Positions 50,485-55,409 of a stretch of DNA of 64,000 nucleotides are shown here, in pieces. Under the pieces are notes generated by a model, which worked only from the letters and a program-made list of their open reading frames with translations, was not told the origin of the DNA and made no database searches. A program made the translations under genes and the position numbers. Source of the DNA: Balamuthia mandrillaris. Taxonomy: Eukaryota. Every line of letters begins with the position of its first letter. The stretch's first letter is position 1. The stretch covers positions 186,001 through 250,000 of the forward strand of contig JAVKOQ020000038.1 of NCBI GenBank assembly GCA_031835245.2, written 5' to 3'.

Positions 50485-51588
50485 TCACTCGCTCAACTTG
50501 TGGACAGGGGTTGGAAGCTCAGAGACGCTCACCCAAGTTATGCAGTAGGAATCGCCGCCCCAACAAAGGGTTGGGTAGAGATCCTCCTGCCCTTCTTCCA
50601 AAACGCTTTTTCGTACTAGCCTATCGTCACAGTAGAGGTCGGTGATCTGCTTCCCGTTCTTGAACCAAGCTATTGCTCCTTCGCGAAGGTCAACGTACAC
50701 ACCTACCCTATCTTTGAGGCCGAAGCGTATGTCATTCAGGTGTTTACCTGTTTCATTGTTGAGGTAGAGTGTACCTACGAAGAAAATAAGAAGGTTAGTA
50801 GGAAGAATACGGAACAAACGACGGAACAGGGATTCAAACCATGGCAATGCAAACCCCAACAGGGCATCTGGGGAATGGTCTTATTGCCAATGGGAGATTG
50901 GAGAGTGGTGATGCGTTGCGGGGCGATGCCCACAAAGATGCTGCTCCCGCCAAACTTCTCAAAAAGCAGCTCAAAGTACTGTTTGCAGTTGCGACGGAGA
51001 GGGATGGTAGCGGTGGAGTTGACCCACTGGCTGGCGGACGACACGGGACCTCTTCTCGCACTAAGGTTGTGGTTCGAGACGATAATGTTTTGAGAGCTGT
51101 CCCATTGCCATCGCAGTTGCGCTGTTTGGAGGCAGTTATTTTTTTAAGAAACAGAAAGAAAAAACAAAAAGGGTAGCAAGAATGGACATACGTGTGACGT
51201 AGCCCAAGACGGCCACTACAAGTTCCGGAGGCAATTTGGAGAAAGGGCAGTCGGGCTCTCGCAAATGGCCAAAGAGGATCAAAGCCTTGGCGGCGTTGGC
51301 ATCGTGTGGGAGCCACGGTTTGTCCACATCTGACGAAGCGGTACCCCCAGGTGCTGTTGCAGTACCGGCAAACTGTTGTACCTTGCGGATCACTTTGGTG
51401 GCAGCAGAGCTAACCACCGGCGACGGAGGTGCACTTGCGTTCTCGCAAACTGTCATGGTCGTCGCTGTCGGCGTTGTCGTGGTGGTGGTCGTTGAGGTTG
51501 GCGTCGTGCTTGCTACCGTTTTGGTTGCAAGCGGTGGTGCGCTTTGTTTCTTTGTTCTGGCTTTGGGAGCGGAAGAAGAAACGCCCAT
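50485..51588 (-). CDS. SPRY/B30.2-domain protein with an MGxxxS myristoylation-like start and an F-box-like motif, 3 exons
   Basis: MGVSSS; FSKLPPELVVAVLGYV; QYFELLF...IFVGIA, FGLKDRVGVYVDLREGAIAWFKNGK, LYPTL. Confidence 0.75.
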
Positions 51589-51971
51589 TTTAGGACATCA
51601 AAAATAAAAAAAAAGCGTCTGGTTCCCTCCTCCTCCGCCTCCTCCTCCTCCTCCTCTTCCTCCGCTATTCGGCTGCGCGCAAATGAAAGTTGACAAGCTT
51701 GACAGCGGACGGGCCGTCAAACATACATTTACAACTGGTCTTTCGCTTCTCCCCTTTCTTCTTCTTCTTCTTCTAGATCTCTGCGAAGGCCCCCTCCCTC
51801 TCTCTCGTTTGGTGTCCGTCTTTTATTTCTTCCTTGCCGTTATTGTTGTCGGGTGGGCAACTTTTGTCGGCAAGATCCTGTCGTGACGTCCTTAGAACAA
51901 GTAAAGAATGGACAGCAAAAAAGTTAGAGATGATGGGCAGGTAAGTGAAATTTCGTTTTTCTGTTTTATTT

Positions 51972-52098
51972 CCCGAATTACAACACGACCCCTGTGGGTT
52001 CCTTCGGAGTTTTCACGGTCCGTGACACCAAATGCTTGGTTGTCGGGGCCGTGTGGAAACTATTTAAGCGACCGCTCCGTTCTTTCCAGTCGTATCCC
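51972..52098 (-). ncRNA. Candidate omegaRNA (Fanzor guide scaffold); 5' end and strand not certain
   Basis: Multi-branch fold: 10-bp stem 51983-51992/52045-52054 (its single mismatch is G.U on the minus strand) encloses hairpins 52013-52025 and 52027-52040. A 5-bp CCGAA/TTCGG pseudoknot links 52003-52007 to the terminus 51973-51977. Confidence 0.5.
52061..52067 (+). promoter_or_regulatory. TATA-like box (TATTTAA) upstream of tnpA
   Basis: The only AT-rich heptamer in a GC-rich stretch, about 45 nt before ATG 52110. Confidence 0.4.
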
Positions 52099-52109
52099 CC
52101 AGTCCCTAC

Positions 52110-53024
52110 ATGTCACAAACCACCACCATTGACGCTACCACTACCATTACCCCACGACTCAGAGAACCCACCGAAGATCTGCACTACGTCGCCCCCACGA
52201 AGCTGATCAAACGCTATGGCGTCTCCCTCAGCGGGCTGGCCAAGTGGCACACGGAGGGCAAGGTGGCGGCCCTCCGCACCCCAAGCGGGCACCGCCGCTA
52301 CGCGGCAGAGCACGTTAGAGAGCTTCTTGGCCTCCCCGCCGCGGTCCCAGAACCCGAGGCCACCGAAAAGATCAAGGCCATCTACTGTCGAGTCTCCAGT
52401 CACGGACAACGAGAGCACCTCAAGCATCAAGTTGAGCGTATGCGAGAAGCCTACCCGAGGCACAAGGTCTACAGCGACATCGGCTCGGGCATCAACTGGA
52501 AGCGCAAGGACTTTGTCGCCCTTCTGGAGCGAGTCCTTGCTGGACATGTCGAGGAGGTTGTGGTTGCCCACCGAGACCGCCTCTGTCGGATCGCCTATGA
52601 GCTCGTCGAGCACATCTTCCGTAGGTGCGGAACCCGTCTCCTGGTGCACCGTCCGGACGACGAGGACGACGACGAGGCCGAACCAAGCAACGTCCTCGCC
52701 GAGGACCTCCTCTCCCTCGTTACCGTCTTTGTCTGTAGACACCACGGTCAAAGACGATATACAGCTGGCCAAGGAGGCAGCTCGAGCACGTCAAAGAGGC
52801 CGAGGCAAACCGAAAAGGGCGACAGAGGAGGATCCAAACGACGACGAAGAGGAGGAGGAAGATCCGACGCTGTTCAAGACGAGAAAGATACGTCTGAGGC
52901 CCACCAAGAAACAAGCCCGGATCCTCAACCGCTGGTTCGGAGGGGCGAGGAAAGTCTGGAACACCACTCTTCGAGACTGCAAGACAACGGAGAAAGAAGA
53001 AGAGGAGGAAAAGAAGAGGAGTAG
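52110..53024 (+). CDS. tnpA: IS607 TnpA: MerR-like HTH plus serine resolvase, with a basic C-terminal extension
   Basis: YGVSLSGLAKW...RTPSGHRRY (HTH); AIYCRVSS (Ser96, 52395-52397); SDIGSGINWKRK; VVVAHRDRLCR; LAEDLLSLVTVF...HGQRRY. Confidence 0.93.
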   Translation: MSQTTTIDATTTITPRLREPTEDLHYVAPTKLIKRYGVSLSGLAKWHTEGKVAALRTPSGHRRYAAEHVRELLGLPAAVPEPEATEKIKAIYCRVSSHGQREHLKHQVERMREAYPRHKVYSDIGSGINWKRKDFVALLERVLAGHVEEVVVAHRDRLCRIAYELVEHIFRRCGTRLLVHRPDDEDDDEAEPSNVLAEDLLSLVTVFVCRHHGQRRYTAGQGGSSSTSKRPRQTEKGDRGGSKRRRRGGGRSDAVQDEKDTSEAHQETSPDPQPLVRRGEESLEHHSSRLQDNGERRRGGKEEE

Positions 53025-54168
53025 AGTGGCGTGGAAGCTGAGTCGGATGCAGGGCGTCTGCGTGGTTAAACCTAGAATCATATTCGATTACTTGGAAGAC
53101 GTCCCCTACTCCATCAAGCACGAGGCGGTAAAGCAGCTCCACGGCAATTACCTCACCTGCTGGACGCTCAAGAAGCAGGGTCATATCCGACGCTTCTCCA
53201 TCAAGTACAAGCGCAAAAAGGACCACCGCACCGAGTCCATCAAGATCCTCGGACATTACGTCCACTGGTGGAAGGGCTTCGTCTACCCTGACGAGCTCCA
53301 TGTGAACAAGCGTTGGAAAGAAGCCAATGAAACCCGCAAGAGGACACCCAGACGACGGCGGTTGCCGAATCCCCACGTTAAGCACATAGACCCCATGTTC
53401 GACCCTGTAGCGTACGCTTTAGAAGGCCTGGAGTTGGACGACAAGGGCCGACTGAGACGAACCTGCACACTGCACAAGGACAAGCGTCAACATTTTTGGC
53501 TCTGCGTGCCGATCCCAATCCAACATCATGAACGGGCTCCTGATAACCAAGGGAGCATCGTGGCCTTGGATCCAGGGGTTCGCACCTTTCTGTGTGGATA
53601 TAGTCCTACCGAGAGAACGGTGAGGGAGTTTGGACGCAACGACTTTGGTCGCATCTGGCGCCTCGGAAAGCATGCCGACGCCCTGCAGTCCAAAATCGAC
53701 CGCTCCCCACCGAGCCGCCGCAAGAGAAAACTTCGCGCTCTGCTCAAACTGAGAAAGAGGGTCACCAACCTGGTCGATGACTTTCACCGCAAGACGGCCC
53801 TCTTCCTGTGCCGCCGCTACGACCACATCATCATCCCTCCCTTTGGTGTGAAGGGCATTACGGCCACCCGAGGGAGGCGACGGAGGAAGATCGGCAAAAA
53901 GACCGCCAGGATGCTCTATTCCTGGGGACATTACCGATTCCGCCAGTGGTTGCTGCACAAGGCGAGGGAATGGGGCACCAAGGTCTACATTCGTTCGGAG
54001 GCCTGGACCAGCAAGACTTGCACCTGGTGCCTCCATGTGACTCACGAACAGAAGCAACACAACCGGCGTGAGCGAATCTTCGAGTGCGGACGCAGGGACT
54101 GTGGGATACGACTGGATCGAGATATAAATGGAGCTCGCAACATACTCCTTAGGAGCCTCTGTTGTTAA
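52216..54168 (+). CDS. tnpB: Fanzor2 / IS607 TnpB RNA-guided endonuclease
   Basis: KIRLRPTKKQARILNRWFGGARKVWN (OrfB HTH); RuvC-I ALDPGVRTF (D452); IIIPPF (P541 at the canonical Glu position); SEAWTSKTC (E595); zinc finger CTWC...CGRRDC; RuvC-III DRDINGARNI (D636). Confidence 0.93.
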   Translation: MASPSAGWPSGTRRARWRPSAPQAGTAATRQSTLESFLASPPRSQNPRPPKRSRPSTVESPVTDNESTSSIKLSVCEKPTRGTRSTATSARASTGSARTLSPFWSESLLDMSRRLWLPTETASVGSPMSSSSTSSVGAEPVSWCTVRTTRTTTRPNQATSSPRTSSPSLPSLSVDTTVKDDIQLAKEAARARQRGRGKPKRATEEDPNDDEEEEEDPTLFKTRKIRLRPTKKQARILNRWFGGARKVWNTTLRDCKTTEKEEEEEKKRSRVAWKLSRMQGVCVVKPRIIFDYLEDVPYSIKHEAVKQLHGNYLTCWTLKKQGHIRRFSIKYKRKKDHRTESIKILGHYVHWWKGFVYPDELHVNKRWKEANETRKRTPRRRRLPNPHVKHIDPMFDPVAYALEGLELDDKGRLRRTCTLHKDKRQHFWLCVPIPIQHHERAPDNQGSIVALDPGVRTFLCGYSPTERTVREFGRNDFGRIWRLGKHADALQSKIDRSPPSRRKRKLRALLKLRKRVTNLVDDFHRKTALFLCRRYDHIIIPPFGVKGITATRGRRRRKIGKKTARMLYSWGHYRFRQWLLHKAREWGTKVYIRSEAWTSKTCTWCLHVTHEQKQHNRRERIFECGRRDCGIRLDRDINGARNILLRSLCC

Positions 54169-54213
54169 TCTCTTACTAATCCCTCCATTTATATCTCGAT
54201 CCAGTCGTATCCC
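54103..54213. repeat. Perfect 31-bp inverted repeat (49-nt spacer) at the element end
   Basis: GGGATACGACTGGATCGAGATATAAATGGAG (54103-54133) versus its exact reverse complement at 54183-54213. Confidence 0.95.
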
Positions 54214-54284
54214 TTTTCCTTAAATTTTTTCTAGGAAAAAGGCCGGCTTTGGGGGAAACTTTGGAGTCCGCAAAAAGCAAGTTG

Positions 54285-55409
54285 ATGGACGCAGGCTCCA
54301 GCAGCGCAGCCGCGCACAGTGGCCCGTCGAATCACGTCCTCGTTAAAGTGGTTGGAGGACCCAAGAATGGCCGCGTGCGAGTGACCATTCTCGCCTGCCC
54401 GGAATGCGGTGCCAGCTTTGCCTCCAAATCCCTCCTTCTGGCGCACATGAAGCAACGTGGGCATGGGCTGCGCTGTGCTACCTGTGGTTGGGCTTTCCTC
54501 TCTCGTGGTGCGTGCAAGCAACACCAGAGAAAAAAGGGCCACGCCTCCTCCACTGCTGCCAACAGCAACGCAGCAGTGGCTCATAAGCCAGAAGAGGACA
54601 AAGAAGCAGCAGCCACGCGCCAATCCCTCTTGCAAAGGCAACAAGCGGCTTTATTATCGGACTTTGCGCAGAAGCTTTGGGGCTTGATGCAAGGACTTAG
54701 CCAAGAGAATATGAAAGCTGATAAAACGATGCTTGCACAGCTACGGGAACAGCAAACGAAGGCGCAGGAGAACCTCAAATCCTTGTGCGGTGCCATGGCC
54801 AGCGCTTCTAGCGAAGGCCAAAAAGCAGCACAGCGGCTGTGTGAAGAGCAACTGGCAGCTATTCGACAAGAACGGGAGGATTGGGAAAAAGAAAAACAAC
54901 ACATTAGCAACGTCAATGGTCTACAACCGAAAGTGGTAAAGGTTAATGTTGGAGGTGAAGTTCCTCTCTTCTCTTTCTTACTGTCTACTCTCCTTTCATC
55001 CCTCTTCTTTTTTCTTCTCTCGGCTTGTTTTGCTCTGTATTCATTTGTTGCATGTGCGTTTTCTCTTTCTTCCTTGTGTCTTAACTTTGTATCTCTTTCT
55101 TTCCATTTCTTCTTCTATTCACCAGGACACGTGTTCACGACCTCAAGCACAACAATGTGCATGTGCACAGGATCAATGCTGGAGGCCATGTTCTCGGGAA
55201 GGCATGCCCTAACGCCAATGGAGGACGGCTCCGTTTTTATCGACCGCGATCCCACTCACTTCAGAACAATCTTGAACTATTTGCGTGGTAACAAGCCGGT
55301 ACTTCCAGAAAACCAGACTGGCCTTGAAGAACTCCTTCAGGAATGTGAATTCTACGGGCTTGCTCCGCTTGCTTCGCTCGTTCGTAAGGCGCTGGAGAGT
55401 GTATCGTGA
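54285..55409 (+). CDS. Two C2H2 zinc fingers, coiled coil and KCTD-type BTB/POZ protein; a possible upstream exon lies before the transposon
   Basis: CPECGASF...HMKQRGH, CATCGWAF...HQRKKGH, VKVNVGG|HVFTTS, FIDRDPTHFRTILNYLR; in-frame intron ~54956-55125. Confidence 0.85.
   Translation: MDAGSSSAAAHSGPSNHVLVKVVGGPKNGRVRVTILACPECGASFASKSLLLAHMKQRGHGLRCATCGWAFLSRGACKQHQRKKGHASSTAANSNAAVAHKPEEDKEAAATRQSLLQRQQAALLSDFAQKLWGLMQGLSQENMKADKTMLAQLREQQTKAQENLKSLCGAMASASSEGQKAAQRLCEEQLAAIRQEREDWEKEKQHISNVNGLQPKVVKVNVGGEVPLFSFLLSTLLSSLFFFLLSACFALYSFVACAFSLSSLCLNFVSLSFHFFFYSPGHVFTTSSTTMCMCTGSMLEAMFSGRHALTPMEDGSVFIDRDPTHFRTILNYLRGNKPVLPENQTGLEELLQECEFYGLAPLASLVRKALESVS

Follow-up and report, generated by a model that had tools for sequence, protein, structure and literature searches.

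A perfect 31-bp inverted repeat in a 3'-truncated Fanzor2 element of Balamuthia mandrillaris is probably a break-repair scar

Introduction

The guide RNAs of IS607 TnpB and of Fanzor2 reach past the open reading frame (ORF) to the end of the element, as described in sections of PMC10711439 and PMC10530073, and IS607 elements possess imperfect subterminal inverted repeats, according to a portion of PMC6188088. Inverse-repeat templated insertions situated beside deletions are a described product of repair, with single or primary templated tracts rarely exceeding 10 bp (sections of PMC7165422). Introners are for the most part non-autonomous (parts of PMC12130899).

The element considered here lies in a 64-kb stretch of Balamuthia mandrillaris DNA (64,000 nucleotides [nt] of assembly GCA_031835245.2; hereafter, the window). 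This copy finishes in a perfect inverted repeat, which the original prediction had taken for the end of the element.

Results

Table 1. Features of the element and of its host flanks, in window coordinates
Feature	Positions	Strand	Evidence
GCAG directly before the element; likely target motif with AG recombination core	51937..51940	+	Loose ends of other copies
Element left end, GTAAGT, matching the consensus 5' splice donor	51941..51946	+	P0122 junction
Candidate TATA-like TATTTAAG, some 45 nt upstream of the start of TnpA	52061..52068	+	Single occurrence in the window
Leader antisense arm, gapped over 47 columns	52067..52107	+	22/23 core (52085-52107) complementary to 54094-54116
TnpA, MerR-type HTH plus serine recombinase (IS607 type)	52110..53024	+	Pfam Resolvase 4.7e-16, MerR 8e-4; IS607-family TnpA structures
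Fanzor2/TnpB ORF, 650 aa, overlapping TnpA; stop made by truncation	52216..54168	+	D452, E595, D636
Start of conserved 3' cis segment, likely omegaRNA scaffold start	54094..54164	+	Contigs of other members match from 54093-54095
Left arm (RuvC-III codons), serving as template for the inverted copy	54103..54133	+	Inverted-repeat search
18-nt linker past the truncation point; supplies the stop codon; branch-point-like TACTAA	54165..54182	+
Right arm, the 31-nt inverted insert abutting host DNA	54183..54213	+	Missing from the X14 allele
Host flank, pyrimidine tract plus acceptor-like TAG	54214..54234	+	17/20 pyrimidines; present in the element-free X14 allele
Host C2H2 zinc finger/BTB gene, frame open through an intron-like stretch	54249..55409	+	Pfam BTB_2 8.8e-16, zf-C2H2

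The IS607/Fanzor2 identity first proposed for the element is borne out by its Pfam domains, by IS607-family TnpA structures, and by the TnpB-type chain 9b0l, a mimivirus-type L79 protein that is the closest TnpB-type solved structure when protein P0122 serves as the query. All three catalytic residues, D452, E595 (in EAWTSKTC), and D636, are present and are invariant in 24 aligned sequences, with E595 in the rearranged position just before the zinc finger. Near-identical proteins are annotated from B. mandrillaris, and the element is multicopy, its depth in run X1 ranging from 71 to 250 compared with about 14 on the left flank. At least two further diverged subfamilies occur in the same organism, represented by P0002 (78%) and P0124 (68 to 88% identity). 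Two RNA runs, X20 and X21, contributed 91 and 88 reads from a strain that is 90 to 99% alike, with 54180-54313 outside their cover; between 52170 and 54180 these reads cover, at low depth and in both mate directions, TnpA and Fanzor sequences from related subfamilies.

The right arm of the inverted repeat is the exact reverse complement of the left arm (31 nt, 100%), with 49 nt between them, confirming the perfect antisense copy originally described. The remaining details of that description are also correct: the left arm comprises codons G630 to G639 (GIRLDRDING) of the 650-aa ORF, including D636, and the stop codon, TAA at 54166-68, falls within the loop. About 3e-12 such repeats are expected by chance in 64 kb. 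The RNA fold of the hairpin has a z score of -6.6, none of 200 shuffles being equally good. At 54120 and 54123, the bases of the arm are those of its own subfamily, positions at which contigs of other subfamilies differ.

A third antisense copy, overlooked in the original prediction, lies in the leader (Table 1). Position 52099 is A in all of the X1 depth, which raises the core from 22 to 23 of 23 complementary bases, and the complementarity surpasses that of 200 of 200 shuffles, the best of which reached 21. In the minimum-energy fold of 51941-54164, the leader is predicted to pair with 54094-54138, looping out both ORFs; when the new 31-nt arm is added to this fold, the arm is predicted to displace the leader pairing. 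The leader is antisense to RuvC-III codons and sits just before the TnpA start, where it could allow the 3' RNA to block TnpA translation. In view of the subterminal repeats of IS607 elements, the leader arm may instead act on DNA.

The hairpin does not coincide with the end of the family's elements, as had been supposed. In five of five contig runs (X1, X2, X10, X11, and X14), contigs of sister copies depart from the window at 54164 and extend at least 62 nt farther into a conserved right end. Read by eye, the letters past 54164 encode the protein tails GVARWSHMGAC (P0001/P0123) and AALPDGANGG... (P0002), indicating that these loose ends are element sequence and not flank. Among the five accessions of a 90% cluster, three read past LCC and the two of P0121, which is identical to the window ORF over residues 201 to 650, stop there. 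The copy in the window is therefore 3' truncated, and the right end of the family, which lies at least 62 nt beyond 54164, is missing from it. The original prediction had named presence in this copy only as what would refute it, and this is largely what the read-through in five of five runs and three of five accessions indicates. One P0121 accession may correspond to this locus and the other to a second haplotype or a duplicate; because the two share the same stop, the scar may exist twice.

The truncation also bears on mobility. The segment that starts at 54094 is conserved into the loose ends of sister copies and is cut at 54164 in the window copy, which would thus have lost most of its likely guide scaffold; without a complete guide RNA or a right end, the copy would presumably be immobile. 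Short, internally deleted copies keep the 3' segment, as seen in a joint of 51974 to 54095 in X1 and in loose ends in X11. These retain about 55 nt of the left end together with the sequence from 54095, the leader arm being absent. In such copies, a hairpin of 5 to 6 bp forms with the start of the 3' segment. The 24 letters within the X1 deletion joint were at one point read as a remnant of the leader arm, a reading that was rejected when they matched the continuation of the left end at 51975-51991.

The arm is the sole 31-mer that occurs twice in 53900-54500, so that contigs assembled with a k of 31 are expected to break at 54132, 54103, and 54184, as was observed. In three of four runs, which derive from different studies, contigs begin exactly at 54184 and continue into the host flank (without other letters in X10 and X11, and with two gaps in X2), indicating that the junction of arm and host is not a fold-back artifact of GCA_031835245.2, a concern voiced when the repeat was first noticed. 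In the fourth run, X14, the match begins only at 54214, with other letters upstream. No contig covers 54173-54183 in any of the four runs (X2, X10, X11, and X14), and the letters of the loop come from the assembly and from NCBI protein P0121. Because an extra truncated copy should lower the depth after 54164, the lack of any drop (252 versus 252 in X10 and 463 versus 484 in X11) counts against a scar. Contig builders may prune hairpin loops from k=31 graphs, and such pruning, along with poor recovery of hairpin fragments, may explain both the absence of loop contigs and the flat depth.

The same contigs would be produced by a longer palindrome that had collapsed in assembly, and the true locus could be such a palindrome, or else the host flank could be joined to an inverted 3' piece from a second copy, with the 49-nt loop a product of assembly or polishing. 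This alternative accommodates the contigs that continue without a break from 54103 into the real right end, the fact that none contains 54165-54183, and the X10 and X11 depths that do not fall past 54164. We nevertheless regard it as unlikely, since a longer palindrome predicts a depth equal to that of element plus flank (about 610 in X10 and 710 in X11), whereas 252 and 484 were found, and since P0121 stops at the linker's stop codon in two accessions. The arm/host junction is real whether the locus is a scar or a longer palindrome.

We conclude that the 31-bp hairpin is probably a break-repair scar in the DNA of one 3'-truncated copy and not a functional end. At the break, family sequence is left at 54164, the right end is deleted, and there follow 18 unexplained bases, the inverted copy, and then host DNA. 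The template of the inverted copy, which consists of the bases 31 to 61 nt upstream, ends 31 nt before the break. The linker has no second match within the 64-kb window when up to three mismatches are allowed, its best local match being 11 of 18, and no microhomology is seen by eye at either end of the right arm. In such a repair event, the broken end would have used the RuvC-III codons as its template, either by folding back or by template switching, and 31 nt would have been copied before being joined to the host end. Of the recombinase end created by template switching that had been offered as one origin of the repeat, the template switching is supported, by the deletion with its inverted copy, but the recombinase end is not, the real end having been lost.

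In the X14 allele, the host flank is present from 54214 with no arm, and a 324-nt contig from X14 connects 51831 with 54317. More speculatively, the element's own Fanzor may have cut an empty allele, with the copying that followed aborted short. TnpB and Fanzor cut at a distance of roughly 15 to 21 nt, and in X14 a GCAG finishes 20 nt short of 54214, close to the place expected for the end of a Fanzor target, which fits aborted homing. The ten letters seen upstream in X14 share only GCAG with the left flank of the window, which renders this step weak. An ATG frame upstream at this locus shows, by eye, no in-frame splice to the zinc finger/BTB gene, arguing that no coding exon is interrupted here.

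Whether such a scar could have been retained because it silences this copy is a separate matter: the 31-bp transcript hairpin might feed small-RNA silencing of the family or block leader pairing. This proposal draws on the very stable fold of the hairpin, on the displacement of the leader duplex predicted for the arm, and on X10 and X11, in which no element-free allele was seen at 54214. We consider it quite improbable, because the hairpin occurs at one locus, without covariation of its arms, and is missing from the X14 allele, and because the match to an Rfam microRNA precursor (MIR847) is subthreshold, at 29 bits against a gathering score of 184.

To survey inverted repeats in viral relatives, which are distant (24 to 43% identical), 79 viral loci were fetched, the motif was located in 49, and 6 duplicates were dropped, leaving 43 that were scored. 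None of these 43 distinct loci has an inverted match of over 16 nt to the RuvC-III codons. Another 30 viral loci lay outside this scoring, 5 of which were scored separately and gave 12 to 13 nt. A search for relatives by single protein in viral contigs found none, and DNA patterns for the hairpin arm and for the left end had no viral matches. The right-end motif was encountered at eight viral loci and one metagenome locus; all nine were dropped as chance matches because none encodes a Fanzor relative by tblastn. At five viral loci (L016, L017, L032, L035, and L046), the RuvC-III region has its best inverted match, of 12 to 15 nt, about 450 to 490 nt upstream, and these matches may represent conserved pairing or shared ancestry. 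L014 and L015 are 2.1-kb copies of IS607 type, 98% identical, that lie with both of their ends in a single viral contig. This is the one viral multicopy pair to have TnpA together with both ends; it lacks a GTAAGT donor, and it could be used to define the target and guide of another Fanzor2-like family.

That the hairpin is a conserved functional end, whether a transcript terminator or processing signal, a recombinase site, or a self-complementary guide as suggested at the outset, is highly improbable despite its perfect complementarity and its position beside the stop codon, as it stands in place of the real right end, sister copies lack it and carry the conserved right end, the repeat occurs in none of the 43 viral relatives, and the guide RNAs of known systems run on to the element end.

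The left end of the element maps, by loose ends, to 51937-51942. Matches to other copies start at 51937 in five X1 contigs, at 51936 in X14, and at 51938 in X20 RNA reads, and two X1 contigs match only from 51942, that is, without the G of the donor. The end reads CAG/GTAAGT (51938-51946), and this nonamer, CAGGTAAGT, occurs once in the 64 kb, both strands counted; we take GTAAGT to be the consensus 5' donor.

In the NCBI model P0122, the element lies within a Rictor-like gene, the host sequence ...GLQ running straight into the translation of the left end, and as in the window, the Q is encoded by CAG at the left junction. Host residues L190-Q191 precede the element and the host resumes at Y895, corresponding without a gap to F815-S816 and Y817 of human RICTOR. 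In this one exon insertion (one of one found), removal of the element restores the host reading frame, as judged from the gene model. If the last intron of P0122 starts from the element's GT after the G894 codon, its acceptor AG is immediately upstream of Y895, and an intron spliced out between the left-end GT and this AG would restore the Rictor-like gene at this one site. The dinucleotide GG is excluded at the P0122 site, where a Leu codon precedes CAG, and an AG core would fit both P0122 junctions. Searching for further host genes with the element fused to them turned up only P0124, which was uninformative.

These features, together with the leader, offer coherent, if unproven, signs that the family behaves as a spliceosomal intron with a bridging duplex. 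The leader arm covers two AGs (52088-89 and 52101-02), each behind a tract with 15 to 16 pyrimidines in 20, and the P0122 model uses one of them. In its fullest form, the reading is that of a spliceosomal IStron: the element would insert after CAG with GT/AG ends, and the duplex of leader and RuvC-III codons would hide the two internal acceptors and loop out the 2-kb ORFs, such that the spliceosome removes the whole element; folding of the guide RNA would instead open the acceptors and permit the transposase to be made. The 31-bp hairpin would then be a natural mutant, from aborted Fanzor homing, in which the switch is broken. We advance this full reading only tentatively, and splice-compatible ends by themselves are likelier than the complete switch. 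The short deleted copies lack the leader arm, which agrees with a duplex required only where the intron is long. Several points weigh against an intron: no spliced read was encountered, two X1 contigs lack the donor G, the viral pair L014/L015 has no such donor, and no DNA sequence showed the true right end, the right AG coming from the P0122 model alone. The RNA runs X20 and X21 do not count for either side, as they are thinly read and come from a diverged strain, and reads spliced at other loci would have no place to align here. There is no Rfam match to a group I intron in 51500-54600 at an E value of up to 1. In the window copy, the TACTAA of the linker (54174-54179) stands about 55 nt before the acceptor-like AG of the host at 54233-34, and by these motifs, the truncated copy might still be spliced out.

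Discussion

The hairpin alone is an ordinary scar, but if it stems from aborted homing, it is a natural trace of a Fanzor cutting its own host genome. As in other templated inverse-repeat insertions, the insert matches, in reverse complement, DNA close to the junction, flanking DNA has been lost, and the insert is absent from sister copies and from the empty allele. Compared with the Pol theta-type TINS treated in sections of PMC7165422, its 31 perfectly matched nucleotides are at the long edge, no microhomology is seen, and the 18-nt linker looks untemplated.

With ApmFNuc/ISvMimi and ACa-1/-2, as presented in portions of PMC3627910 and PMC10530073, the element shares a MerR-HTH serine recombinase overlapping a Fanzor2 with a rearranged catalytic E, and with the IS607-Fanzor2 elements of those same portions, a conserved 3' segment that overlaps the end of the ORF. 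Like IS607 elements, it has an inverted repeat inside its ends, which in IS607 is imperfect and subterminal (part of PMC6188088). Unlike in known IS607/Fanzor2 elements, the junction looks like CAG/GT and not GG, a consensus splice donor forms the left end, and the inverted repeat is located 145 nt inward, its partner being coding sequence; the window copy, moreover, has no right end.

A literature search, with subscription papers and Repbase outside its scope, returned no IS607 or Fanzor element described as a spliceosomal intron. Balamuthia had no matches in the searched supplements of the papers cited, including those of PMC10711439 and PMC10530073, and IS607, Fanzor, TnpB, and Balamuthia had none in the searchable parts of PMC12130899 and 12 of its 14 supplements. 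The classes of introner listed in those parts are TIR, LTR, non-LTR, Helitron, and Crypton, whereas the family here is IS607. It would resemble introners in that transposon ends supply the GT and AG and exon insertions are spliced out, and if the reading is true, serine-recombinase elements join the known origins of new introns, and the choice between splicing and guide-RNA folding becomes an RNA switch open to testing.

The closest parallel is with the IStrons of IS607 group B (parts of 10.1101/2023.11.20.567912 and PMC13565253), which likewise combine a transposase, an RNA-guided nuclease, and removal from host RNA, the last being inferred here. Unlike IStrons, the element has no group I intron by the Rfam search, and it would be the spliceosome of a eukaryote that removes it. 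If it is so spliced, transposition, RNA-guided cutting, and splicing are joined in a eukaryote as they are by IStrons in bacteria.
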